15,452 nucleotides of DNA, taken from positions 1 through 15,452 of the forward strand of contig JBNAWM010000027.1 of the NCBI GenBank assembly GCA_049699855.1, written 5' to 3'. Both the position numbers and the translations under genes were made by a program. This DNA comes from Candidatus Cryosericum sp. (GTDB lineage Bacteria > Caldisericota > Caldisericia > Cryosericales > Cryosericaceae). The notes beneath the pieces are model-generated. The model was not told where the DNA came from, did no database searches, and was given only the letters and a program-made list of their open reading frames with translations. Shown one piece after another: positions 435 to 14,708 of this stretch; position 1 is the stretch's first letter, and each line of letters begins with the position of its first letter.

Positions 435-3062
435 ATGAGCTTTCCCTTTGTTCCAACCGTAACCGCAAAACGAAAGCGAACCGAGATCAGCAATCAGATC
501 TCCCGTCGCCTGGCGACGTTTGCCCGCATGGATCCCTCTGCCGTCATGGAGCAGCTTGGCACGAGTACGGCCGGACTCAGCGATGAGGAGGTCGAAGCAC
601 GCCTGGAACAGTATGGCCACAACGAGGTGGCACGCGAACAGCGCACGTCCCCGCTCAAGCGCCTGATCATCATTCTTTCCAACCCGCTGTCGGTCCTGCT
701 GATCATCCTGGCAATCATCACGGCTCTCACCGGCGGCGGCCCCGGCGTTTATGTCATCCTGCTCATGGTTGTCCTTGGCGCCGCCCTGAGATTCATCCAG
801 GAACAGCGTTCGGACATTGCCGCGCAGGAACTTCAGAAGATGGTCACGACGACAGCAACCGTCATGCAGGACGGAGGCAAGAAGGAAGTCGCCCTCAAGG
901 ACATTGTGCCCGGCGACCTGGTCTTCCTGTCCGCAGGAGACATGGTCCCGGCGGACGTGCGTCTGATCACCGCCAAGGATCTCTTCGTCAGCCAGGCAGC
1001 CCTCACCGGCGAGTCCATGCCTGCAGAGAAATCCGCCACCCTGGTGGATGTGTCCCAGACGGACGTGCTGAGCATGCAGAATCTGTGCTTCCTCGGAACG
1101 AACGTCGAAACCGGCTCCGCAACAGCAGTTGTGGTACAGACCGGCAAGGAGACCTATTTCGGAGCGCTTGCAAGCAGTATCGTCGGCCGCCGCGAGATGA
1201 CCAGCTTCGACAAGGGCGTCAACAACTTCACGTGGCTGATGATCAAACTGATGCTCGTCATGGCGCCTGCCGTTTTCCTCATCAACGGCCTGCTGCGCCA
1301 CAACTGGATGGAAGCGTTCCTGTTTGGTCTTGCCGTAGCAGTGGGGCTGACCCCCGAGATGCTCCCTATGATCGTCACCGTCAACTTGAGCAAAGGCGCC
1401 GTCGCCATGTCTCACAAGAAGGTCATCGTCAAGCGCCTGAATGCCATTCAGAACTTTGGAGCAATGGACATCCTCTGCACCGACAAGACGGGCACCATCA
1501 CGCAGGGGCACGTTCAGCTGGAGCGGTATGTCAATATCCGTGGCAACGAGGACGGGCACGTCCTCGACATGGGATTCCTCAACAGCTACTACCAAACCGG
1601 ACTGAAGAATCTCATGGACATTGCCATTCTGGCGCACGTCGACAAGGCACGCGAGCTCGTGGATGAAGCCAAGTACCGCAAAGTGGATGAGATTCCCTTC
1701 GACTTCTCACGCAAGCGCATGTCCGTTGTCGTGACCGATGGCAAGACAGATTTCCTCATCTGCAAGGGTGCCGTCGAAGAGGTTGTCGGGCTGAGCACCA
1801 TGGTTGCGCTTGAAGGTGGCAAACTACCCTTGGACGGTCCTCAGCGCGCAAACGCGCTCCAGCTTGTCAGTGACCTGAATGCACAGGGATTCCGCGTGCT
1901 GGCCATCGCTACTGCCAGCGCCGGGCATGGCGATGCTGACCGTGTCTATACCGTGAGCGACGAACGGGACCTGACCTTGCTGGGATTTCTTGCCTTCCTG
2001 GATCCGCCCAAGGCGACAGCGGCCGAGGCTATTGCCAAATTAGGCTCCAACCGAGTTGGTGTGAAGATTCTGACGGGCGACAGCGACCTCGTCACCGTCA
2101 ATGTCTGCCGTCAGGTTGGCATCCCTGAGCCACGCGTCCTGCTGGGGCCGGCCATCGAAGCCATGTCTGATGCCGATCTGGCAGGCGTGGTGGAGGACAC
2201 GGTAGTCTTCGCCCGGCTCTCGCCAAACCACAAGGAACGCATTATCCGGTCATTGCAGCAGCGCGGTCACGTGGTTGGCTTCCTTGGCGATGGCATCAAC
2301 GACGCCCCCGCGCTCCGCACTGCGGATGTCGGCATCTCTGTCGACTCAGCGGTCGATATTGCCAAGGAGTCGTCCGACATCATCCTGCTGGAGAACTCCC
2401 TGCTGGTGCTGGAAGAGGGCGTCATCGAGGGCCGCAAGGTGTTTGGCAACGTCATCAAGTACATCAAGATGGCTGCCAGCTCCAATTTCGGCAACATGTT
2501 CAGTGTCATTGGAGCCAGCGCCTTTCTCCCGTTTCTTCCCATGCTGCCTCTGCAGATCCTTACCAATAACCTGCTGTACGACCTCAGCCAGACCACCATC
2601 CCCACCGACGCAGTAGACGAAGAATGGCTGGCCCGGCCGAGGAAGTGGGAGATTGGCAATCTGCGCCGGTTCATTGTGTTCATCGGACCCATCAGCTCGA
2701 TCTTCGACTACGCGACGTTCTTCATCATGCTGTATCTCTTCAAATGCTGGACCAATCCGGCGCTGTTTCACACCGGCTGGTTTGTGGAGTCGCTGTTCAC
2801 CCAGACGCTCATCGTACACGTGATCCGCACCAACAAGATCCCGTTCATCCAGAGCATCGCCAGCAAGCCATTGCTGATCAGCTCTGTTGCCATTGTTGCG
2901 ACGGGTGTCCTGCTGACCGTCATCCAGCCCATCGCCCGGGTCCTGGGCTTCGTTGCTCTGCCGCCCCTCTATTGGCCACTCCTCCTGGGGATGCTGCTGA
3001 CCTATGTCGTCCTGACGCAGATCGTCAAGACCTGGTTCATTCACCGCTTCGGAGATGTCTAG
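435..3062 (+). CDS. mgtA: Magnesium-translocating P-type ATPase (P3B, MgtA/MgtB)
   Basis: SD GGAGGT at 422-427. Motifs TGES, GLTPEMLP (P3B signature), DKTGT (phospho-Asp), LNSYYQTGLKNLMD, PFDFSRKRMS, TGD, GDGINDAPAL, SSNFGNMFS and FHTGWFVES. 875 aa. Confidence 0.97.
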   Translation: MSFPFVPTVTAKRKRTEISNQISRRLATFARMDPSAVMEQLGTSTAGLSDEEVEARLEQYGHNEVAREQRTSPLKRLIIILSNPLSVLLIILAIITALTGGGPGVYVILLMVVLGAALRFIQEQRSDIAAQELQKMVTTTATVMQDGGKKEVALKDIVPGDLVFLSAGDMVPADVRLITAKDLFVSQAALTGESMPAEKSATLVDVSQTDVLSMQNLCFLGTNVETGSATAVVVQTGKETYFGALASSIVGRREMTSFDKGVNNFTWLMIKLMLVMAPAVFLINGLLRHNWMEAFLFGLAVAVGLTPEMLPMIVTVNLSKGAVAMSHKKVIVKRLNAIQNFGAMDILCTDKTGTITQGHVQLERYVNIRGNEDGHVLDMGFLNSYYQTGLKNLMDIAILAHVDKARELVDEAKYRKVDEIPFDFSRKRMSVVVTDGKTDFLICKGAVEEVVGLSTMVALEGGKLPLDGPQRANALQLVSDLNAQGFRVLAIATASAGHGDADRVYTVSDERDLTLLGFLAFLDPPKATAAEAIAKLGSNRVGVKILTGDSDLVTVNVCRQVGIPEPRVLLGPAIEAMSDADLAGVVEDTVVFARLSPNHKERIIRSLQQRGHVVGFLGDGINDAPALRTADVGISVDSAVDIAKESSDIILLENSLLVLEEGVIEGRKVFGNVIKYIKMAASSNFGNMFSVIGASAFLPFLPMLPLQILTNNLLYDLSQTTIPTDAVDEEWLARPRKWEIGNLRRFIVFIGPISSIFDYATFFIMLYLFKCWTNPALFHTGWFVESLFTQTLIVHVIRTNKIPFIQSIASKPLLISSVAIVATGVLLTVIQPIARVLGFVALPPLYWPLLLGMLLTYVVLTQIVKTWFIHRFGDV

Positions 3063-3087: not shown

Positions 3088-3151
3088 CCCCCTAACCCGC
3101 CGTACGGAAGATCCCGGGTTAGGGGGATTGTTTATCTCTTTCTCTCTTTTT
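3088..3151 (+). terminator. Intrinsic terminator after mgtA
   Basis: Perfect 12-bp stem CCCCCTAACCCG (3088-3099) / CGGGTTAGGGGG (3115-3126), followed by ATTGTTT and a long pyrimidine/T-rich tract. Confidence 0.8.
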
Positions 3152-3186
3152 GCTGTATATTCTGTTATTGTTCTAGATTCAGGAGG
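3128..3186 (+). promoter_or_regulatory. AT-rich promoter-like region and RBS of the DUF819-SPL-AOR operon
   Basis: Candidate -10 elements TATATT (3156-3161) or TG-t-TATTGT (3163-3171), then AGGAGG at 3181-3186. No clear -35. Confidence 0.4.
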
Positions 3187-3193
3187 CTGTTGG

Positions 3194-4348
3194 ATGCTGA
3201 TGATATACTGCGCTTTCGCCGTATTGGTTCCTGCCCTCTTCATATATCTTGCTTATCGGTTTGCTCCCTTGCGAGCAATTGGCACAGTAGTGCTGTGCTA
3301 TCTCGCAGGAATGGTCATCGGCAATATTGGGCTCTTTCCCAAAAGCATCGCACCTTTACAGTCTACTTTATCAAATGTCACGGTAGCACTCGCGCTGCCG
3401 CTTCTCCTGTTTTCTATCGATGTGAAGAAGTGGTTCAGAGTTGCCGGAAAGGGTATGCTGGCCATGCTGTTAGCCATCATCGCAATTGTGACTGTTGCCT
3501 TCGCAGCTTACCTTGCTATCCACAGAACAGACGCAGCTGCCTGGCAATTGGCCGGCATGGCCATGGGGATGTACACTGGTGGAACACCCAATATGGCTGC
3601 CATCAAGTCAGCCCTGGGTGTGCCTAGCTCCGTGTATATTCTCTTCCTTACCTATGATACGATCGTCTCCCTTGTCTACATCTTGTTCATGTCCACAATT
3701 GCACGCCCCCTCTTCGGTCTCTATTTGAAGCCCTATGAACCCCCCGTCTCCGACAACGCAGTTGGCACAGCAGGAGATGAGGACGAGTCAATTGAAGCAT
3801 ATTCGGGCATGTTCGGCAAGGCCACACTGCGCGGCCTCGGTCTGGCTTTTTTGGTGAGTGCAGCCATCGTGGGAGCCTCCATTTTCTTGGGGGGGCTGGT
3901 GCCCGGATCGGCCTCTACAGCAGTGACGATCCTCTCAATCACTACCCTTGGCATTTGCGCCTCCTTTGTGCCAGCCATTCGCAGACTTCGAAAGACGTTC
4001 CAGGCTGGCATGTACATCATTTATGTCTTTTGCTTCGTCGTAGCCTCTATGACCAGCTTGGATAGTCTTGTTCATATTGACCTCCACATCCTGACATTCG
4101 TGACCGTGTGTATATTTGGCACCGTTCTGCTCCACTCCCTCCTCTGCCGTCTGTTCAGAATTGATGTTGATACTTTTATCATAACATCTGTTTCTGCTGT
4201 CTGCTCACCGCCTTTTGTACCTGCAGTCGCTGCTGCGCTCAAGAACAAATCGATCATCATATCAGGGCTGACGACAGGCATCGCAGGGTATGCCATTGGA
4301 AACTACCTGGGCATTACCTTTGCCTATCTGTTCAAGAGCATTCCATGA
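3194..4348 (+). CDS. DUF819-family integral membrane protein (putative transporter), 384 aa
   Basis: AGGAGG 7 nt before ATG 3194, so the true start is internal to track ORF 2624..4348. Roughly 10-12 hydrophobic segments. Motifs YTGGTPNMAAI and C-terminal G(I)AGYAIGNYLG are typical of DUF819. Confidence 0.8.
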   Translation: MLMIYCAFAVLVPALFIYLAYRFAPLRAIGTVVLCYLAGMVIGNIGLFPKSIAPLQSTLSNVTVALALPLLLFSIDVKKWFRVAGKGMLAMLLAIIAIVTVAFAAYLAIHRTDAAAWQLAGMAMGMYTGGTPNMAAIKSALGVPSSVYILFLTYDTIVSLVYILFMSTIARPLFGLYLKPYEPPVSDNAVGTAGDEDESIEAYSGMFGKATLRGLGLAFLVSAAIVGASIFLGGLVPGSASTAVTILSITTLGICASFVPAIRRLRKTFQAGMYIIYVFCFVVASMTSLDSLVHIDLHILTFVTVCIFGTVLLHSLLCRLFRIDVDTFIITSVSAVCSPPFVPAVAAALKNKSIIISGLTTGIAGYAIGNYLGITFAYLFKSIP

Positions 4349-4359
4349 GAGGAGATGAC

Positions 4360-5835
4360 ATGACAAACGGTCTGCCAGCAACCGGAAGATCTCGCGCCGA
4401 GGTTCTTGCTGATCTCGAAAGCTTCAGCAAAGACGATCCGCAATATAAGGAAGCCAGGACATGGAGTCTCGTTTACTATCTGGATGAGGACTACAATCAG
4501 TTTCTCCAGCAGGCATATGGCAAGTACTTCTCGGCAAATGGTCTCAATCCTGCTGCCTTCAAGAGCTTGAAGCGTCTCGAGCGTGAAGTTTTACAGGCAA
4601 CATCCGAGCTTCTGCATGGTGACAACCAAGTCTGTGGCGTCATGACCTCTGGCGGAACAGAAAGCTGTCTGCTGGCAGTAAAGACATATCGTGACCGTGG
4701 TCGTGCCCGCGGCATTCGCAAGCCGGAGATGGTAATTCCTGAGACGGCACACGTTGCCTGGGAAAAGGCCAGCGAATACTTCGGCGTCAAGATAAGGCGA
4801 GCTTCCCTTGCAAAGAGCATGGGAGTTGATCCCGCGTCTGTGAAACAGCTGATAAACCACAACACAGTCATGGTCCTGGGCTCCGCTCCAGAATATCCAC
4901 ATGGTATCATCGATCCCATTGAGGAGCTGGGCCGCCTGGCACAAGAACGAGGCGTTCCTCTTCATGTGGATGCCTGTGTTGGCGGCTACTTGTTGCCGTT
5001 TCTAGAACGGCTCGGCATTCCCTTGCCGCTCTGGGACTTTCGCGTGCCAGGTGTGACATCCATTTCAGCAGACATTCACAAATATGGTTTTGCTGCCAAA
5101 GGCGCTTCCAGCATCCTGTATCGAAACCTGGATTACTTCAAGTACCAGGTATTCGTCTACGAGAACTGGCCGGGCGGGATTTTTGCGTCACCCGCTTTGC
5201 TGGGAACTCGTCCTGGCGGCGCCTACGCCGCAGCATGGGCGGCTTTACAGGCAAATGGGGAGGAAGGCTACCTTGAGCTTGCCAGAAGAACAATGAATGC
5301 AACTGGCAGATTGCTCGAGGGCATTAAAGCTATTCCCGGTCTTGAGATTGTCGGCGATCCCCACACCAGTCTGTTCGCATATCGCTCATCAGACCCAACC
5401 GTGAACATTTTCGCCGTTGGCGATCAGATGGAGAAGAGGGGATGGTTGATCGACCGCCTCCAGAGGCCAGACGCCCTGCACGCCATGGTGACCGCTTCTC
5501 ATGACGCAGTTGTGGACACTTATCTTGCCGACCTGGCCGCGGCCGTTGCCGAGGTACGAGCTCACCCTGAGCTGGGCGAAACCGGCCAGGCTGCCACGTA
5601 TGGAATGATTTCTCACATTCCACTGCGGGGAATGGTGCGCAAGCAGGTACTTGATATGTTCGCGGCCACCTATTGTCTCTCTGGTGGAGAGGTTGATCTG
5701 TCAGACTCCGCATCCCTGACTGGCGCAACTTCCGAAAATGCAGGAGAGACCGGCAGCAAGCCCGGTCTGGTCGCGCGGCTCATCAACTGGTATGTCAAAC
5801 GACAACAAGCGCGCGAAACCTCGTCCAAGAAATGA
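4360..5835 (+). CDS. Sphingosine-1-phosphate-lyase-like PLP enzyme (group II PLP decarboxylase fold)
   Basis: SD GAGGAG 4349-4354 before ATG 4360; an in-frame ATG at 4345 overlaps the upstream stop. Motifs TSGGTES..LAVKTYRD, AHVAWEKA, GSAPEYPHGIIDPI, HVDACVGG, DFRVPGVTSISADIHKYG (PLP lysine), WPGGIFASP..GTRPGG and C-terminal YGM closely parallel S1P lyases. Confidence 0.85.
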   Translation: MTNGLPATGRSRAEVLADLESFSKDDPQYKEARTWSLVYYLDEDYNQFLQQAYGKYFSANGLNPAAFKSLKRLEREVLQATSELLHGDNQVCGVMTSGGTESCLLAVKTYRDRGRARGIRKPEMVIPETAHVAWEKASEYFGVKIRRASLAKSMGVDPASVKQLINHNTVMVLGSAPEYPHGIIDPIEELGRLAQERGVPLHVDACVGGYLLPFLERLGIPLPLWDFRVPGVTSISADIHKYGFAAKGASSILYRNLDYFKYQVFVYENWPGGIFASPALLGTRPGGAYAAAWAALQANGEEGYLELARRTMNATGRLLEGIKAIPGLEIVGDPHTSLFAYRSSDPTVNIFAVGDQMEKRGWLIDRLQRPDALHAMVTASHDAVVDTYLADLAAAVAEVRAHPELGETGQAATYGMISHIPLRGMVRKQVLDMFAATYCLSGGEVDLSDSASLTGATSENAGETGSKPGLVARLINWYVKRQQARETSSKK

Positions 5836-5889
5836 AAGAAGAGAGAAACTTATGACGGTGACGATGCTGATTGTCTGCGGGCGGATATC

Positions 5890-7872
5890 ATGAAGCCATA
5901 CCGAGGACGCATTTTGTGGGTCGACCTCACGACAGGCACGTTTGCTGTCGAAAAGGTTCCGGATGAGGTCTACCGCACGTATCTAAGCGGGCTTGGGCTT
6001 GCTGCATGGGTGCTGTATCGAGCCATCCCGGCAGGGGCGGAGCCCCTTGGTCCCGACAACGTCCTTGGCTTCGTTTCGGGGCTTCTGACCGGTTCGGGGA
6101 GTTTGTTTACCGGCCGTTGGATGGCCGCGGCCAAGTCACCACTTACCGGGACCTGGGGGGATGCCAATTGCGGTGGTACCCTGTCGCCGGCCATCAAGCA
6201 GTGTGGTTACGATGGCATCTTTGTCACCGGCATGAGCGACCATCCCGTGTACCTGTACATCGACAATCATGGCCCGGAGCTGCGCGATGCGACGGATCTC
6301 TGGGGTCATGACACCATTGAAACGGAGTCCATCCTGAAACAGCGGACAGGCGGAAACCATACGCCGGCGGTCGCCTGTATCGGCCCTGCCGGCGAACGGC
6401 TGTCGCTGATCGCAGGCATCAGCAATGATGGCGGCCGCATGGCTGCCCGCTCCGGACTGGGTGCGGTCATGGGATCCAAGAAACTCAAGGCCATCGTGCT
6501 GGCAGGCTCGCGGCCCATGGGCAGCGAGAATCCCGGAGAAATGATGCGCCTCAGCCGTCCCTGTGCCTCTGCTGCAACGCATGGTATTCCTCTGCCGTCA
6601 GGCCGCGTTATGCCACTGCTGGGGGCCCTCCTGCGCCATCTGCCCATCACCATGCGCATGGATGGTCATCTGTCCATCCCCATCTTTCGCAAGTGGGGTA
6701 CCTGCGGCATGGACCAGGCATCGGTCGAATGGGGGGACACACCTGTACGCAACTGGTCTGGCAGTGAACGGGACTATCCCGTACGACTTTCTTCAGCCAT
6801 CAACCCTGACCGTGTCCTGACGTATGAACAGCGCAAATACCATTGCTACTCCTGTCCCCTTGGCTGTGGCGGAACCTGCACTTGGCAGGGCAGGGAAACC
6901 CATCGGCCCGAATACGAGACGATCGGAGCCTTCAGCGCCCTGCTCATGTGCAACGACCTGGCAGCCATCTATGCCGTCAATGATCAGCTGAACCGGGCCG
7001 GTATGGATACCATCTCCGCCGGGGGTACCATCGCCTGGGCCATGGAAGCATGGGAAAAGGGGATCCTCACGTCTGCCGACACAGACGGCTTCGCACTGCG
7101 CTGGGGCGATCCCGCCGCTGTCCGGCATCTCGTTGACCTCATGATTGCCCGCCAGGGCATTGGAGTGTTGCTGGCAGATGGTTCCCTGCGCGCGGCACGC
7201 CACTTCGGCCATGACTCGGAATCGTTTGCAATTCAGGCGGGCGGTCAGGAGATCGCCATGCACGACCCGCGCCTGGACCCCGGATATGCGCTCCATTCCA
7301 GCGTTGAGCCGACCCCAGGACGCCACACGACGGGTGCGCAGACCTACTATGACATGTATCGTCTCTGGACCCGCGTCCCTGGATTACCAAAGCCCCGCCT
7401 GCTCTCCACCAAGGCTTCCAAGTACCGCGCTGACCGTACCCAGACCGCGATAGGAGTCGCCAACAGTTGTTTCACCCAGCTCTTCAACGGAGCCGGGCTG
7501 TGCATGTTCGGTGCCATGATGGGGGTAGATCACCTCCCTGTGTTCGAGTGGTTGAATGCCGCCACCGGCTGGACAATGACGCCAGAGGAGTATATGACCA
7601 TCGGCAGGCGAATCCAGACCCTGCGCCAGCTGTTCAACGTGCGCGAAGGCATCGATCCACGCTCGCTGGCCATCAGTCCGCGGGCAACGGGACACCCTCC
7701 TCTCACACAGGGTGCCAATCGAGGAAGAACTGTACCGATCGATGCATTGATGCGCAACTACTGGCAGCAGATGGGATGGGACCCGGCAACCGGCATTCCC
7801 ACTGTGGCAACACTTCAGGAACTGGGCATCGAGCATCCTGCCGCCGGCAGCACCAATTCGTCATCGACGTAA
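5890..7872 (+). CDS. Aldehyde:ferredoxin oxidoreductase family protein (W/Mo-bis-pterin)
   Basis: N-terminal YRGRILWVDLT, KSPLTG..GDANCGG, CIGPAGE, AARSGLGAVMGSKKLKAI, CYSCPLGC plus distal GLC ([4Fe-4S] ligands), PEYET, GMDTIS and HDPR. 660 aa. Confidence 0.93.
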   Translation: MKPYRGRILWVDLTTGTFAVEKVPDEVYRTYLSGLGLAAWVLYRAIPAGAEPLGPDNVLGFVSGLLTGSGSLFTGRWMAAAKSPLTGTWGDANCGGTLSPAIKQCGYDGIFVTGMSDHPVYLYIDNHGPELRDATDLWGHDTIETESILKQRTGGNHTPAVACIGPAGERLSLIAGISNDGGRMAARSGLGAVMGSKKLKAIVLAGSRPMGSENPGEMMRLSRPCASAATHGIPLPSGRVMPLLGALLRHLPITMRMDGHLSIPIFRKWGTCGMDQASVEWGDTPVRNWSGSERDYPVRLSSAINPDRVLTYEQRKYHCYSCPLGCGGTCTWQGRETHRPEYETIGAFSALLMCNDLAAIYAVNDQLNRAGMDTISAGGTIAWAMEAWEKGILTSADTDGFALRWGDPAAVRHLVDLMIARQGIGVLLADGSLRAARHFGHDSESFAIQAGGQEIAMHDPRLDPGYALHSSVEPTPGRHTTGAQTYYDMYRLWTRVPGLPKPRLLSTKASKYRADRTQTAIGVANSCFTQLFNGAGLCMFGAMMGVDHLPVFEWLNAATGWTMTPEEYMTIGRRIQTLRQLFNVREGIDPRSLAISPRATGHPPLTQGANRGRTVPIDALMRNYWQQMGWDPATGIPTVATLQELGIEHPAAGSTNSSST

Positions 7873-7884
7873 AGGAGACGGCAT

Positions 7885-8292
7885 ATGGCATACACCATCA
7901 CCGACAAATGCATTGGATGCAGCCTGTGCGCACGCATCTGCCCGGTCGCCGCCATCACAGGACAACTCCATTCGACGTACGTCATCGATGAGAGTGTCTG
8001 CATCGATTGCGGCGCGTGCGGAAGGGTCTGTCCGGCTGCCGCCATCTTGGACACAACAGGAGCGACATGCACCCATGCGAAGCGTGAGAGCTGGCCGAAG
8101 CCTGCTATCGACGCTGTCTTGTGCGTATCGTGCAATGCCTGCATCCAGGCCTGCCCGGTGAGCTGTCTGGACCTTGGCGCGACGAACCTTCAGGATCCCC
8201 ACGCCAAACCCGTCCTGGCACTGCCGGACCGGTGCATCGGGTGTGGATTCTGCGCTGACTCCTGCCCGGTGGGCGCCATCACCATGAGGTAG
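7885..8292 (+). CDS. Polyferredoxin with four [4Fe-4S] motifs
   Basis: SD AAGGAG before the ATG. Four CxxCxxCxxxCP motifs (CIGCSLCARICP, CIDCGACGRVCP, CVSCNACIQACP, CIGCGFCADSCP). Confidence 0.93.
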   Translation: MAYTITDKCIGCSLCARICPVAAITGQLHSTYVIDESVCIDCGACGRVCPAAAILDTTGATCTHAKRESWPKPAIDAVLCVSCNACIQACPVSCLDLGATNLQDPHAKPVLALPDRCIGCGFCADSCPVGAITMR

Positions 8293-8298
8293 CCGGCC

Positions 8299-9960
8299 AT
8301 GAGCTCTGGGCACAGCACGGTTGTCATAACCCACGCGCCTCCCCTGGATTACCGTCGGGACTTTGTCGCCCTGCCGCGCACGTACGGGACCACCGCATGG
8401 GAAATGCGTTCTGATGTCCGGGCAATCCGAACGACGGTCTTTGAAAACCTGAGCGCGCTCGACGACCGCGCGCACTTCTCGGACAGGGCAAAAAACCGTC
8501 ACGTCCTGCTCAAGCCAAACCTTGTCACCGTGTACCACGACATGGGCCTCGTCGACCGCGACTACCCCGAAACAACCGACCCCCGCGTCCTGGACTCGGT
8601 TGTGCAGTGGTTCCTGCAATTCACGAGTGATATCACTATTGTCGAGTCGTCCGGGCGCGGGGCTCCAACGCGTGGCTCGTTCCATGTCGCGGGCATTGAC
8701 CGCCTGGCACGCCACCGGGGCGTGGGACTCGTGGCACTGGAAGAGCAGCCCATCGATCGATATATCCTGCCACACGCCAAGGTCCAGAAAGAGATCTGCA
8801 TCCCCCGCATCATGAGCGGAACAGTCACGGGCGAGTCCTTCTACGTGTCGCTGCCGAAGATGAAAACCAATCTCTATACCGGTGTGACTCTGGGCTTCAA
8901 GAACGCCATGGGGACTATCCCCTACAACCTGAGACAGCGCAATCACAACTGGGCCATTGACCAGAAACTGGTGGACATGCTGTATCTCTTCCGGCCGGAC
9001 CTTGTCCTGGTCGATGGCATCGTTGGCGCCGAAGGCAACTGCCCCGCCCCCGTTCAGCCGGTGGACAGCAGGGTGATCATCAGCGGAGACAACACCGTGG
9101 AAGTCGACCGGGTCACCACCGGCATGATGGGGTTCGACCCCATGAGCATCAACCTGATCCGGATTGCTCAGGAGCTGGGGTTCGGCGACCCGTCCGTAGA
9201 GGTCATCGGCGACACGTCACCGATGCATTTCACCCCCGCTGACGCCTCCCTGATGTCCGACTCGTTTCATGAGCTGTTTCCCAACGTGCGTGCGCTTGTC
9301 GGGCACGAGATGCGCAATGCACCTCACGTTGCTCACATGACTGACGTCACACCCGCACTGGTCCTCCAGATGGAACAGGTCTGCCGCGGAGGGTGCCTGG
9401 CCACCACACGATTTGCTTTTGACATGTTGCGCTTTGAGGGACTGAGCCGCGATTTCACGCTGACGGTCGTCATTGGCGCTGGCACCATCATCGATGGGAA
9501 ACGCGTGTGGCTTGACCGTGCCGGGACCGGGTATACGGCCGACCAGATCCAGCGCCTGCCTGGCAGGCACATGATTGTCGGCAACTGTGCACATCTTGTC
9601 CCCGCACTGCGCGGCGAACGTGTTGAAGGATGCATGCCGTTTCCCAACGCTCCCCACATGGTTCTGCACCGCCTGACCGGGACCTGGTGCAGGGTGATGT
9701 CGCCGCGCAACCACAACCTGCTTCCCCTCCTGATGGCGACCCTGCAGGAATGCGAAAACCGTAAACGTCTGCTCAGGCAGGGAGTCCGTCTGGACGTCCC
9801 TCTGCAGATGGATGATCATATTGCGGAACCTCGTCCCCTGACAGAGTCCGAGCAGGCCATGGACATCATCCCCTGGCCATTTCCCCCGCTCACACCTGCG
9901 GAGATCCGCCAGCTCGTCGCGCAGGAAAATCGCAACGTACTTGCAACCTTTAGAGGTTGA
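8299..9960 (+). CDS. DUF362 domain protein with Cys-containing C-terminal domain (putative Fe-S)
   Basis: Motifs VLLKPNLV, TTDPRVL, IVESS, SLPKMKT...VTLGFKNAMG and RPDLVLVDGIVGAEGNCP, plus C-terminal CRGGC...GNC...GCMP. GAGGT upstream. Confidence 0.82.
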   Translation: MSSGHSTVVITHAPPLDYRRDFVALPRTYGTTAWEMRSDVRAIRTTVFENLSALDDRAHFSDRAKNRHVLLKPNLVTVYHDMGLVDRDYPETTDPRVLDSVVQWFLQFTSDITIVESSGRGAPTRGSFHVAGIDRLARHRGVGLVALEEQPIDRYILPHAKVQKEICIPRIMSGTVTGESFYVSLPKMKTNLYTGVTLGFKNAMGTIPYNLRQRNHNWAIDQKLVDMLYLFRPDLVLVDGIVGAEGNCPAPVQPVDSRVIISGDNTVEVDRVTTGMMGFDPMSINLIRIAQELGFGDPSVEVIGDTSPMHFTPADASLMSDSFHELFPNVRALVGHEMRNAPHVAHMTDVTPALVLQMEQVCRGGCLATTRFAFDMLRFEGLSRDFTLTVVIGAGTIIDGKRVWLDRAGTGYTADQIQRLPGRHMIVGNCAHLVPALRGERVEGCMPFPNAPHMVLHRLTGTWCRVMSPRNHNLLPLLMATLQECENRKRLLRQGVRLDVPLQMDDHIAEPRPLTESEQAMDIIPWPFPPLTPAEIRQLVAQENRNVLATFRG

Positions 9961-9963
9961 TAC

Positions 9964-10275
9964 ATGGCGAAGCGGAGATGGTTCTGGACCCTCTGCCGCG
10001 TCCTGACGCTCCTGCTGTTTGCAGGAATTGTCCTCGCCGGCTACGCGATGAAACATCTGATCGTGGGCTGGTGCGCCCTGGCGGCACTGCTGGCGCTTCA
10101 TGCGGCCGAACTCCATACCAGCCTGAGCCTTCAGGCAACAGCTGGTCTGAGGCGGCCCTACATCATCGCGATGACACTGCTGTTCGGCTTTACGTGGTGG
10201 TTTCCCGCACTGTCTACCGGATCTTCCTGGGACGGAACGCGCGGCTGGCCCAGGTCAAGGCCTCGCGGTCAGTAA
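9964..10275 (+). CDS. Small membrane protein (about 3 TM; H..E and TLLFG pattern, DUF1145-like by eye)
   Basis: AGAGGT upstream, starts 3 nt after the DUF362 stop. Basic N-terminus followed by hydrophobic helices, LHAAE and MTLLFGFTWW. Overlaps the convergent gene by 62 nt. Confidence 0.65.
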   Translation: MAKRRWFWTLCRVLTLLLFAGIVLAGYAMKHLIVGWCALAALLALHAAELHTSLSLQATAGLRRPYIIAMTLLFGFTWWFPALSTGSSWDGTRGWPRSRPRGQ

Positions 10276-10864
10276 CCTCGTGGAAGTCTTCATAGAACTG
10301 GCCGACGGCCATCAGCCACTCGGCCGCATGCACTGCCACGACACGGTACCCCTGCCTCGCCAGCTGGCGCATGACTTCCTTGTCCACGACAGGCGTTGCG
10401 ATGGTCGGAACACCGCCCATGCCACTGACAACATCCGCTGCGGCAGTCATGGTCGCGCCCGTCGCGATTCCATCGTCGACGACCAGGACGCGGGCACCCC
10501 GTTCCCAGGTCTGTGGAATATAGCGCTCAAACAGCTCTGCGTACAGCACCAGCCGCTCTTTCTCAAAGCCGATCTCGGCCTCAAGGCGTTCGCGGGGTTC
10601 ATGCGCTGACTCCGGTGACAGGATGGTGGCAAAACTGCCATTCCCGGCATATCCCAAAGCGCCCACTGCCAGCTCGCGATTCGCATCAGAACGAATCTTG
10701 CGGATGAGCAGAACACCAAATGGAAGGCCCAGTTCCTGGGCGACGACAGACCCGACGACCACGCCACCGCGCGGAATGCCATAGCAGAGGTCAAAGACCA
10801 GCCCCTGCTCACGGATCTCGCGCGCCAACTTCGTTCCCGCTTCTTCCCGCGAAAGGAAAACCAT
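10214..10864 (-). CDS. Phosphoribosyltransferase family protein
   Basis: SD GGGAGGA upstream. F.SREEAG..LA, PRGGVVVG, PRPP-binding VVDDGIATGATM and AVGQFYEDF.EVTD typify the uncharacterised type I PRT family. Confidence 0.9.
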   Translation of the reverse strand: MVFLSREEAGTKLAREIREQGLVFDLCYGIPRGGVVVGSVVAQELGLPFGVLLIRKIRSDANRELAVGALGYAGNGSFATILSPESAHEPRERLEAEIGFEKERLVLYAELFERYIPQTWERGARVLVVDDGIATGATMTAAADVVSGMGGVPTIATPVVDKEVMRQLARQGYRVVAVHAAEWLMAVGQFYEDFHEVTDREALTWASRAFRPRKIR

Positions 10865-10964: not shown

Positions 10965-11513
10965 TCAGATGCGCAGATACCAGGCAATGGCGGTCTCGTC
11001 CTCACTGCCCGGTGTTGCCTGGAGGTAGAGGCGGTCAAAACCGCCGATGACGAACCCGTAGTCGCGGAAGAACATGCAGGCGGTTACGTGCACATCCTGT
11101 GTCTCGGCGCGCAGCCAGTGCAGGCCGCGACCCAGAGCCCAGTCCCGGACGGTGTCCATGAGCGTTGTTGCAATGCCATGGTGCAGGTGTCCGTGTTCCA
11201 CGCGCAGGCCCCATACCCGTGCCATGTTGTTGTGGTCTTCCTGCACGCATACCTGCCCCACAAGCTGTTCGTCCACGAACGCCAGATAGATGGCCGCATC
11301 TTCCCGGTCCAGATAGACAAGATCCGGACGGCCGCCTTCTGATTTGGCATAGGGATGTTCGACCGAATCGACATCGAAGTCGTACTGGTCACCGCACATC
11401 GAGACCTTTACGCGGGCTTTCACCACGAAACTGCTTCGCAGTCCGTCGACGAACGGAGCAAGTTCCCTCGTTGCACGCACGATGCGTATGTCAATGCCAG
11501 TCGTCTGACTCAT
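10965..11513 (-). CDS. GNAT N-acetyltransferase, streptothricin acetyltransferase (Sat)-like
   Basis: AcCoA-binding region HLHHGIATTLM and C-terminal ETQDVHVTACMFF..YGFVIGGFD..Y.....DETAIAWYL resemble Sat/SatA. Start chosen at ATG 11513 (alternative 11519). Confidence 0.8.
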   Translation of the reverse strand: MSQTTGIDIRIVRATRELAPFVDGLRSSFVVKARVKVSMCGDQYDFDVDSVEHPYAKSEGGRPDLVYLDREDAAIYLAFVDEQLVGQVCVQEDHNNMARVWGLRVEHGHLHHGIATTLMDTVRDWALGRGLHWLRAETQDVHVTACMFFRDYGFVIGGFDRLYLQATPGSEDETAIAWYLRI

Positions 11514-11519
11514 GTGCAT

Positions 11520-11525
11520 ATGATA
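11520..11525 (-). promoter_or_regulatory. -10 element (TATCAT) 6 nt before the GNAT start: probable leaderless transcript
   Basis: Minus strand reads TTGTG-TATCAT-ATGCAC-ATG, with no SD in front of the gene. Confidence 0.45.
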
Positions 11526-11610
11526 CACAAACGCCAGCGCGAAAGGGGAAGCCGGCATTCACAACTGGATGTTCAGGCCGGTTCGCAGGACTCGTCAACG
11601 GAAAATGCAC

Positions 11611-12276: not shown

Positions 12277-14532
12277 TTATTGATGACTTGATGCCGATGC
12301 AGACGTGGCGACGGCGCTGATCGTGATCGTGACCGTCTTGGTCGGATCATCCCATGCGACGTCGGCTCCGAGGTGCTCACTGACAAACCGGACTGGCAGC
12401 ATCGTCCTGCCATTCATGATCGTGGCAGGAACGTCCATCACGACCGGCTCACCATTCACCACGGCCGTCCGATTGCCAATCTGCAGCAGCAACGTCGTTC
12501 CATTGAAATCCACCTCGACACTGCGCGTATCGGCAACCCAGGTGATACCGCCCCCCAGGCCCTCAATGATTGGCCGCAGCGGAACGAGAGTCCTGCCGCT
12601 TACGATGACCGGGGGTGTATCCAGGGTCAGCAGCTGACCGTCAAGATGCGCCGTCTTACTGCCAACGGACAGCGTAATGATGTGCTGGTTGGGATCCACC
12701 GTTTTCTGAAACGTTGCCAGCACCGATTTGTTCTCGTTCATCGTGAGCGACATTGGATTCGCCGTCCCTATGGCGCTTCCGCTCCAGCCTGTGAACTCCC
12801 ACCCTGCAGCCGGACGGGCGGTGAACGTCACCGTGCTGCCTGCGGGGTACGAGTCCTGCCGAGGCTCCACGCTCAGGAAGCCATTGCCCATGACAGCCGA
12901 CAAAAGAGTGTACGACGATTGCGTGGTTCCACCGATGACATATTGAGACAGGCTCTGTTCGTTGCCATTGAACCAGTTCAGATCAACGCTGTGCCCTTCC
13001 ACCCCCGGGACGCTGCCATTGTCTGCATACTGCCAGAATGCCCAGGAGTCCCACCCCCCGATGTTGGGCTGAGCGGATGCCGTATAGGCTGCAATCCACA
13101 AACGGTAGCGCCCGCTGATTGTCGGGTCGGCCTTGATCAGATCAGCCGCCACCGAAGAACTGCAGTAGATCACCGGGTTAGCGCCAGTTGCGCCCCGGAC
13201 GATCGTGGACCACTGGTCAATCCACTGCACCATGGCAATGCCGTGAATGTTGTACTTGGGCTCGATGTCCAGGGCTGGCACCAGGAATCCAGGGGTGATG
13301 TACTGGCCAGCCACCTGAAGGAAATAGGCTGCTTCGGCCGCCGCTGTGTTGTCTGCAGGCCAGCAGATATGATAGACCCCTGTCAGAAGACCCGCTGATC
13401 GAGCGCCCGGAACCAGAACATTGAGAAACGGGTCCGTGATCGTCACGCCCTCCGTCGCTTTGACGAACGCGAAGCGATAGCCGGTCGAGAACACGGCTGC
13501 CCAGTTGATGGGGCCGTCCGCATGGTCTCCCCCGCACTGCCACCGCGAAACGTCAATTCCCTGGATCATGCCGACACGCATCTGCACCGGGATATTAATA
13601 CTGCCTGTGGAAGAGGAAATGCGCACAAGACTCTCATAGGTTCCGGCTGCCATGCCCGTGCGCTGTATGGCTATCGAAACAGGCTGGCTTGCGCCGACGG
13701 GGATGCTTCCCGATGCGGGCGAAGGGCTGGCAATCCATGGTGCTCCAACTGCCGTGCTGAACGTCAGTGGCGATGTTCCCGTGTTCTGCAGCGTGAGGGT
13801 CAGCAATGACTGCTCGCCTCCAAAGTCGAGCTGGGGGGGAAGGAAGAAAAGTCCGGCAGGCATGGGTGCGGCCTGCGGAACGACCTGAACGTCGGCGCAG
13901 CGATCACCTGCCCCGTTTGCATTGACTGCACTGACGGCATACCAGTAAGCCCTGCCGCCCAGCAGCATCGGGCCGTCCGTCCACGTTCGGGTGTCAAAGC
14001 CGGGGTCTCCAGCGTTGATTGTTGCAATCAGCACCTTTGGGTCGGCGTGACGGTCACGGTAGATCCGCCAAGCGGAAATGGGGGCTGTCCCCGTCTGGTC
14101 AGGCGGCGCCCATCTCAGGGAGACCGACTCCACCCCGGCCGTTGCCGTCAGCGACGTGGGAACGCCGGGAATCGGACTGGGAGGGACTGCCTTGAGGTAC
14201 GTGTCCACCGACCAGCCCATGAGACCATCTTTCCACTGCACGCGCCACCAGGTGAACCCGCTGCCGCTGGCAGGTCCCTCGAGAATAATGCCCGAAGCCC
14301 CATCCTTCTCGACTCCCGAGACCGCCCCTGACGTGCCGGGTGAGGCCCGCACATTGAGCCCGTCGCCGCCGGTGCCGGTGACTTCCACGGCGGAGCCAAC
14401 CGCCAGCGCATCGGCACGCGCAGGTGCGGCGTCCAGCAGTGCGGACAGCATGAGGAAAATGCACAGGACGAGGGCCACCCTTCTGAGAACGGCTCCGCGC
14501 CTGCCTGCGTCCTTCCACCCCGGATATAACAT
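12277..14532 (-). CDS. Secreted multidomain GH25 lysozyme/muramidase: signal peptide-SH3-FN3-BACON-like-GH25-InlB-B-repeat-like-copper amine oxidase N-terminal (stalk) domain
   Basis: AGGAGGT at 14551-14545 upstream of ATG 14532; signal ...ALVLCIFLMLSALLDAAPARA. SH3 (GLNVRASPG...WWRV...GW), FN3 (PTSLTA...LRW...YWYAVSAVN), GH25 (GIDVSRWQ, FAFVKATEG, LDIE, LWIAAY, FWQY, DLNWF), PAAGWEFTGWSG repeat, and GRTLVPLR/GRTMLPVRFVSE stalk domain. Confidence 0.88.
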   Translation of the reverse strand: MLYPGWKDAGRRGAVLRRVALVLCIFLMLSALLDAAPARADALAVGSAVEVTGTGGDGLNVRASPGTSGAVSGVEKDGASGIILEGPASGSGFTWWRVQWKDGLMGWSVDTYLKAVPPSPIPGVPTSLTATAGVESVSLRWAPPDQTGTAPISAWRIYRDRHADPKVLIATINAGDPGFDTRTWTDGPMLLGGRAYWYAVSAVNANGAGDRCADVQVVPQAAPMPAGLFFLPPQLDFGGEQSLLTLTLQNTGTSPLTFSTAVGAPWIASPSPASGSIPVGASQPVSIAIQRTGMAAGTYESLVRISSSTGSINIPVQMRVGMIQGIDVSRWQCGGDHADGPINWAAVFSTGYRFAFVKATEGVTITDPFLNVLVPGARSAGLLTGVYHICWPADNTAAAEAAYFLQVAGQYITPGFLVPALDIEPKYNIHGIAMVQWIDQWSTIVRGATGANPVIYCSSSVAADLIKADPTISGRYRLWIAAYTASAQPNIGGWDSWAFWQYADNGSVPGVEGHSVDLNWFNGNEQSLSQYVIGGTTQSSYTLLSAVMGNGFLSVEPRQDSYPAGSTVTFTARPAAGWEFTGWSGSAIGTANPMSLTMNENKSVLATFQKTVDPNQHIITLSVGSKTAHLDGQLLTLDTPPVIVSGRTLVPLRPIIEGLGGGITWVADTRSVEVDFNGTTLLLQIGNRTAVVNGEPVVMDVPATIMNGRTMLPVRFVSEHLGADVAWDDPTKTVTITISAVATSASASSHQ

Positions 14533-14604
14533 CTCTGTTCCACTACCTCCTGCGCACAACGTGCCCGGCAACCCACACCAGGGCCAGCTCCACCGATCAT
14601 GTAC

Positions 14605-14613
14605 ATTGTAGCA
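14605..14613 (-). promoter_or_regulatory. Extended -10 promoter for GH25 gene
   Basis: Minus strand TG-C-TACAAT about 70 nt upstream of the start codon. Confidence 0.5.
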
Positions 14614-14708
14614 GCATTCTGGCAAGCATTGCTCCTCCCCGTCCCCTGCACCCATGAATACTTGCTCTGCGCTCTGTTCTCCTCCTTCCCACAAGAACCG
14701 AAGGCGCC

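Follow-up and report, generated by a model that had tools for sequence, protein, structure and literature searches.

A kinase-free variant of the sphingosine-1-phosphate lyase family, paired with DUF819, beside an aldehyde oxidoreductase module in Candidatus Cryosericum

A contig of Candidatus Cryosericum sp. (JBNAWM010000027.1), analyzed here over 15,452 nucleotides and called the window, carries a run of six open reading frames (ORFs), all on the forward strand, between positions 3194 and 10275. ORF and Pfam scans uphold their family labels: a DUF819 carrier, a pyridoxal phosphate (PLP) enzyme of the sphingosine-1-phosphate (S1P) lyase family, a member of the aldehyde:ferredoxin oxidoreductase (AOR) family, a polyferredoxin, a long DUF362 protein and a small membrane protein. 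The original prediction read the six as one catabolic operon in which the lyase releases an aldehyde and the AOR oxidizes it. Our analysis divides them into two modules, A and B, and centres on the lyase and its carrier. The features of the run and its borders, with GC content at third codon positions as GC3, are the following.

435-3062: mgtA (TIGR01524, score over the cut-off)
3088..3149, forward strand: terminator-like hairpin 3' of mgtA, 5' boundary of the run; 12-bp stem, 15-nt loop, T-rich tail
3194-4348, forward strand: module A gene 1, DUF819 membrane carrier; ATG start, AGGAGG at 3181-3186, PF05684 with E 2e-42
4360-5835, forward strand: module A gene 2, PLP enzyme of the S1P-lyase family, kinase-free WSLVYY/NGLN clade; alternative start at 4345, Pyridoxal_deC
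5836..5889, forward strand: inter-module junction of 54 nt; homology to kin stops at about 5810 (module A) and resumes at about 5889 (module B)
5890-7872, forward strand: module B gene 1, aldehyde:ferredoxin oxidoreductase family; AFOR_N and AFOR_C, 329 bits to 1AOR, GC3 0.69
7885-8292, forward strand: module B gene 2, polyferredoxin with four CxxCxxCxxxC motifs
8299-9960, forward strand: module B gene 3, long DUF362 protein of 553 aa; Pfam DUF362, model of pLDDT 90
9964-10275, forward strand: module B gene 4, small membrane protein; no Pfam family, a DUF1145-like match being a lead only
10214-10864, reverse strand: convergent phosphoribosyltransferase-like ORF, overlapping the last gene of the run by 62 nt

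The ORF coordinates bear out the description of six co-oriented genes with gaps of 54 nt or less: a 4-nt overlap (an 11-nt gap if the lyase starts at 4360) is followed by gaps of 54, 12, 6 and 3 nt. The proposed boundaries, a terminator behind mgtA and a convergent gene, fared less evenly. The convergent ORF is present, and the hairpin can be read from the sequence, with a perfect stem (3088-3099 / 3115-3126) and a T-rich run after it; however, the terminator scan gave a weaker hairpin at this site, and the 4 terminators it returned were no excess over the 5.4 in shuffled sequences.

Gene 2 had been predicted to be S1P-lyase-like and no simple decarboxylase, and this was confirmed by its scores: 411 bits to the PDB entry of StSPL versus 102 to MfnA and 92 to GAD, and values under the NCBIfam decarboxylase cut-offs (241 < 299 for MfnA, 126 < 380 for GAD), which together rule out plain GAD or MfnA membership. 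Papers are cited here by PMC number. Residues were compared using the table for S1P lyases in PMC6148460. The PLP set of StSPL (G168, T169, H201, D274, C276, H310, K311, S353) is kept as G99, T100, H131, D204, C206, H240 and K241, the last being the PLP lysine, with T283 for S353. The phosphate residues Y105, N126 and K317 correspond to Y39, N60 and K247 and are invariant in all 104 loci of the clade, and the entry tyrosine Y482 of the C-terminal extension corresponds to Y414, present in 102 of the 104 with two rows gapped. Two head-group positions differ: A103 of StSPL is L37 here and leucine throughout the 104 loci, and H129 is N63, asparagine in 103 and D in one, whereas characterized S1P lyases have A or T at the former and H or Q at the latter (PMC6148460). 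The C-terminal tail of the clade is about 40 residues longer (median 67 versus 26); its extra part has an amphipathic moment of 0.58 against 0.47-0.56 in other clades, which does not discriminate.

A quick tree built from 44 selected rows recovered the WSLVYY/NGLN clade as monophyletic (SH-aLRT 100; 26/44 rows), and the clade ranges over Bacillota, Spirochaetota, Desulfobacterota, Pseudomonadota, Myxococcota, Gemmatimonadota, KSB1 and Bacteroidota in addition to the lineage of the window. By its sequence the lyase is a member of its own clade of the S1P-lyase family, with a remodelled head-group pocket (A103L, H129N). Literature searches, which here and below had most subscription journals outside their scope, found no account of this clade in work on sulfonolipid degradation, on FGGY kinases with sphingosine lyase or on DUF819. 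A class-wide search around G041 returned only G041 itself (1/300 genomes, one not scored). Plasmid homologues (34-43%) were set aside, as they belong to other branches and lie among ABC transporters or in a polyketide synthase cluster.

The clade is also set apart by what stands next to it. A kinase census was made by class- and family-wide searches followed by inspection of a chosen subset of matches with flanks, and its counts stand for a few lineages, not for independent events. A co-oriented FGGY-family kinase adjoins lyases that carry NPLH, the motif of StSPL, or are of the Q type in 28/28 loci and in a further 14/14 in a third class (42/42). Beside the clade of the window it occurs in 0/104 loci (for 75 of which each flank spans 3 kb or more), in 0/11 further clade loci (four of which look like repeats of earlier ones) and in 0/6 loci of the sister branch, that is, 0/121 when clade and sister branch are pooled. 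A Pfam scan of neighbour representatives gave no recurring kinase of another family; it did show an APH-type enzyme next to threonine synthase in 2 loci, a single ROK protein and a single AAA_33 protein. At the genome level, 12 of 50 clade genomes have a lyase-type FGGY kinase (at least 43% identity), and at least 5 of these 12 have a second lyase of another clade; the remaining 38, many of them incomplete, have FGGY relatives of at most 37% or none. The source genome (1.63 Mb, 97.9% complete) has a best FGGY match of 24% and, in the genome search that the original prediction had suggested for a sphingosine kinase and ethanolamine-utilization genes, no DAGK_cat and no EutB match; nor did the Pfam scan of the window reveal a kinase, as had been noted. 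What can be carried over from this window to other genomes is a form of the S1P-lyase family that has no kinase partner. S1P itself is doubtful as its substrate, given the two changed head-group residues and the absence from the clade of the kinase found with StSPL-like enzymes.

The lyase-linked FGGY kinases (L269-L291, L293, L297, L299, L301, L304, L373-L386) fall short of every named cut-off (272 < 380 for xylulokinase) and are candidates for a bacterial sphingoid-base kinase unrelated to the DAGK type. Five of these operons (L269, L270, L271, L275, L277) have an added class III aminotransferase and a RuBisCO-like protein. A distant lyase clade, FGYVFD/NGLD (L292, L294-L296, L298, L300, L302, L303), likewise has no kinase; Y105 is replaced there by F, R284 mostly by K, and an unclassified membrane protein adjoins the lyase in 6/8 loci and TauE in 2. 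A 'GltS-like' label for that membrane protein was dropped, as it had no Pfam or NCBIfam match.

The conserved partner of the lyase is DUF819. In the window this carrier has about 10 hydrophobic segments by hydropathy, and its gene has a GC content of 0.51. DUF819 adjoins the lyase in 43/80 lyase loci and occurs in none of 80 DUF362 loci (samples defined below); among the 104 clade loci, 62 have DUF819, 21 have DedA and none has both. The family belongs to the CPA/AT clan, has a CitS-type template, and its clan moves small charged solutes (PMC8396727); our literature search found no substrate described for DUF819. The pair has other upstream companions in places. Seven Clostridia loci (L028-L033, L036; e.g. 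L029:7105-8814) have upstream of it a GH3-family acyl-amide synthetase that could couple an amine product with an acid, and two others (L260:9620-10651 and L261) have a PLP enzyme of the beta-eliminating-lyase family, which by its motif we take to be threonine-aldolase-like.

Module B is an intact set of another kind. Its AOR has all four [4Fe-4S] ligands (C319, C322, C326, C538), and its sequence assigns it to the bis-pterin W/Mo enzyme family; TupA/TupB-like genes are present in the source genome, under the cut-off. In the model of the DUF362 protein the N-domain has a LarA-like fold (VIA Z 14.9, rmsd 3.1, 212 aligned) and the C-domain resembles the Fe-S domain of hydrogenase small subunits and NuoB at a middling score (VIA Z 6.5, rmsd 3.3, 101 aligned), with C362, C366, C430, C445 and C464 invariant. 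A PDB sequence search with this protein gave no match and Foldseek only weak LarA-family matches; its closest named homologue is from a Caldiserica bacterium (81%). The small membrane protein is kept in close kin and in one other locus only, and in other genomes module B is frequently accompanied by MarR or TetR regulators.

Conservation of the six genes as a unit was examined from both sides, in the best 80 of at least 598 lyase loci confirmed in GTDB genomes and in the best 80 of 189 long-DUF362 loci in metagenomes, many of them short or redundant. An AOR adjoins the lyase in 2/80 lyase loci (30% identical to that of the window) and the DUF362 gene in 37/80 DUF362 loci; a long DUF362 gene adjoins the lyase in 0/80, and a lyase the DUF362 gene in 0/80. 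In 50 of the 80 lyase genomes a long DUF362 gene was found anywhere only once. Among 22 genomes of the same genus the lyase is present in two (G010, G012) and DUF362 in three (G005, G011, G012), and in G012, the one with both modules, the two lie on separate contigs. Four kin loci carry an intact module B behind unrelated upstream genes, three of these loci extending to the same downstream genes, and homology to kin DNA (blastn) begins at the AOR start codon. Furthermore, GC3 is 0.57 in the DUF819 and lyase genes and 0.69-0.76 in the flanking genes. Another genome of the genus, G008, has a decayed 3' lyase remnant (L023:9531-9750) without DUF819.

Absence of conservation had been named beforehand as refuting the six-gene association, and it is what we found in reciprocal synteny, at the genome level and in kin. 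We are therefore confident that the run is a local join of two separately inherited modules and not a conserved operon. Since the kin loci have other genes upstream and the GC3 of the DUF819-lyase cassette is low, we infer that this cassette was most likely placed in a variable site ahead of a resident AOR module. It is accordingly very unlikely that AOR, polyferredoxin and DUF362 evolved as a dedicated six-gene pathway to oxidize the long-chain aldehyde of the lyase; the tight spacing, a terminator scan without a site in the 54-nt junction, the lack of a match to an NAD aldehyde dehydrogenase in the genome, and a coupling of lyase and AOR elsewhere, with another AOR subfamily, speak for such a pathway, and the synteny counts, the kin loci and the difference in GC3 against it. 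The two modules may still be transcribed together. The juxtaposition itself is of little consequence. The expectation that the operon would give context to two DUF families holds for DUF819, a partner of the lyase; DUF362, not found beside a lyase in either set of 80 loci, gains no sphingolipid context because the six-gene association is not conserved.

The idea that the product of the lyase belongs to the substrate class of the AOR survives in a looser form. The source genome has four AOR-family genes and no match to the NAD aldehyde dehydrogenase family PF00171, though this family was found in 14/14 controls, so that any aldehyde made by the lyase would probably be disposed of by an AOR, and this role may be the reason why the juxtaposition is tolerated. 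The coupling recurs elsewhere, as an AOR of another subfamily follows lyase and aminotransferase in L066, L245 and L246; the AOR of the window, however, is not conserved with the lyase, and nothing found supports a dedicated one. Queries for acyl-CoA dehydrogenase, electron transfer flavoprotein (ETF), alanine dehydrogenase, TauE and PTER-like proteins had no match in the source genome, its aminotransferases reach no more than 35% identity and have different gene surroundings, and a search for ceramidase had no match there and none in the controls either.

The neighbours of the lyase in other genomes suggest what it may act on. A taurine-type aminotransferase follows it in 6/104 loci (L066, L245, L246, L251, L252, L070). 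In the first five this is a class III enzyme immediately 3' of the lyase; the best PDB match of two of them is taurine:2-oxoglutarate aminotransferase 6JIX (300 vs 271 and 301 vs 267 bits), and the W and R aligned with W23 and R158 of 6JIX, which we take to be functional residues, are kept in 5/5; the match is moderate, and the enzymes may instead be beta-alanine transaminases. The aminotransferase of L070 is of a second type, its nearest Atlas cluster being auto-named taurine-pyruvate aminotransferase and its best PDB match being 3N5M, a YhxA relative without assigned function (PMC6522883). The same locus has an alanine dehydrogenase, a major facilitator superfamily (MFS) carrier and a hydrolase whose scores place it nearest PTER (282 vs 200 bits), PTER being an N-acetyltaurine hydrolase (PMC11374699). 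TauE lies directly 3' of the lyase in four betaproteobacterial loci (L056, L058, L091, L387). Lipid-type neighbours (FadL, acyl-CoA dehydrogenases, AMP-binding ligases, lipases) are sporadic. Two candidate assignments were rejected: a neighbouring short-chain dehydrogenase/reductase (SDR) as sulfoacetaldehyde reductase, with no such enzyme among its 13 PDB matches, and the thiamine pyrophosphate (TPP) enzyme of L050 as Xsc, its closest models being acetolactate synthase and 2-hydroxyacyl-CoA lyase.

We tentatively propose, as the most probable of the readings considered, that the lyase cleaves a long-chain base that is already charged, for example capnine, without a kinase, to give taurine and a fatty aldehyde. 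Capnine is the C1-sulfonate analogue of sphinganine-1-phosphate. PLP-dependent retro-aldol cleavage of its C2-C3 bond, as in S1P lyase, would yield the two products; the C1 sulfonate would sit in the remodelled phosphate pocket, DUF819 would move taurine or the base, and the adjacent or another AOR would oxidize the aldehyde. Capnine is made from cysteate in Bacteroidetes (PMC11193023), and S1P lyases accept a C1-phosphonate (PMC6148460). Such a substrate would account for the missing kinase, the change in the pocket and both kinds of neighbour, taurine and lipid. In the source genome the pair would detoxify or scavenge and not feed a full catabolic pathway, because no match to beta-oxidation or taurine-degrading genes was found there. 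No capnine lyase and no degradation route for the base was found in the literature on capnine and sulfonolipid degradation. More speculatively, the S1P-lyase homologue clade found in at least 8 bacterial phyla could be the missing capnine lyase that opens the breakdown of Bacteroidetes sulfonolipids, with DUF819 as carrier, while StSPL-type clades would use the FGGY enzyme as an unrecognized sphingoid-base kinase.

Several observations weigh against this proposal. The source genome has no taurine-pathway match, and taurine-type aminotransferases adjoin no more than 6/104 loci, five of these from related spirochaetes. The match to 6JIX is moderate, its family also handles beta-alanine, and enzymes for taurine are not easily distinguished from those for beta-alanine. 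PTER, too, acts on N-acetyl-beta-alanine (PMC13311154), and TauE/TSUP is a broad family (PMC12671195). Xsc is present in only 4/12 clade genomes against 26/289 others (p 0.023, kinship ignored; the total of 30/301 takes in G597, an unpublished genome) and also in 3/4 genomes with a different lyase type, a weak and unspecific signal. The pocket change is not decisive, as an active Burkholderia S1P lyase has Q at H129 (PMC6148460). Finally, the sister branch adjoins an amino-acid permease in 3/6 loci, which fits a decarboxylase.

This last point, together with the small charged solutes moved by the DUF819 clan, means that a pair of cysteate or aspartate decarboxylase and antiporter fits too. The enzyme would then have arisen from an S1P lyase and would decarboxylate L-cysteate, cysteine sulfinate or L-aspartate to taurine, hypotaurine or beta-alanine; DUF819 would exchange substrate and product as a proton-motive pair, and in richer operons the aminotransferase and AOR would process the amine. 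Two genes would suffice in fermenters without beta-oxidation, taurine-type neighbours are explained equally well, decarboxylation and retro-aldol cleavage break the same bond position in established PLP chemistry, and the clan of DUF819 includes Asp/Ala exchangers and Glu and citrate symporters (PMC8396727). We nevertheless regard it as unlikely, given scores far under the decarboxylase cut-offs, the retention of the S1P-lyase C-terminal extension and entry tyrosine, which lie beyond the reach of the MfnA alignment, and the nearby DedA, FadL and acyl-CoA enzymes that point to lipid. Ordinary sphingoid bases, either unphosphorylated (yielding ethanolamine and aldehyde) or imported as 1-phosphates via DUF819 or DedA, seem about as unlikely. 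They agree with the retained equivalents of Y105, N126, K317 and Y482 and with the lipid-handling neighbours; a kinase would be unnecessary, and the bulkier L at A103 and the missing H129 would fit a head group that is small and neutral. Free sphingosine is a substrate of one Burkholderia S1P lyase, at about 8% of the rate with S1P (PMC5234717). However, they leave two separate taurine-type aminotransferases, the PTER-like enzyme and TauE unexplained, the source genome lacks an EutB match, and the best 60 of 79 PDB matches for the aminotransferase next to the lyase include no ethanolamine-phosphate phospho-lyase.

Common members of the Bacteroidetes produce sulfonolipids. If the enzyme is a capnine lyase, DUF819 would gain a function, and membrane-lipid turnover would be tied to the cycling of taurine and sulfur in the gut, in sediments and in digesters. 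The clean split, with the kinase beside one pocket type and the carrier beside the other, points to the substrates and controls for a simple assay.

Two further genes of the window lie downstream of the run. A GNAT acetyltransferase (10965-11558, reverse strand), kept at the same site in kin, is closest to streptothricin acetyltransferases, well under their cut-offs (79 < 360), and a multi-domain GH25 lysozyme-family protein (12277-14694, reverse strand) has weak SH3/FN3/BACON matches and a copper-amine-oxidase N-terminal domain.

Among known systems, the AOR of Pyrococcus furiosus (1AOR) and tungsten oxidoreductases with polyferredoxin partners are the counterparts of module B. The AOR of the window shares with them AFOR_N/C, the four cluster cysteines and aligned PEYE and H motifs; unlike 1AOR, it belongs to a subfamily tied to the 553-aa DUF362 protein, and its tungsten use and aldehyde oxidation are predicted. 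Clusters for taurine nitrogen assimilation combine Toa or Tpa with alanine dehydrogenase, sulfoacetaldehyde reductase and an exporter, and import through TauABC (PMC6616044). Relatives of the lyase similarly adjoin Toa-like or Tpa-like aminotransferases, alanine dehydrogenase and TauE, but have lyase and DUF819 upstream, and the source genome is without the downstream genes of such clusters. With MfnA (tyrosine/aspartate), GAD and decarboxylase/antiporter pairs, the pair of the window has in common the fold, the Pfam family and the layout of an enzyme plus a carrier, and its lyase is separated from MfnA and GAD by bit scores and cut-offs. The closest structural relatives of this lyase are StSPL of Symbiobacterium thermophilum (3MAD/5EUD), human SGPL1 (4Q6R) and yeast Dpl1 (3MC6). 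Like S1P lyases (EC 4.1.2.27) it has the PLP residues and the equivalents of Y105, N126, K317 and Y482, and it is soluble as StSPL is; it differs from StSPL in A103L and H129N, in its separate clade and longer tail, and in having a DUF819 or DedA partner in the place of an FGGY kinase.

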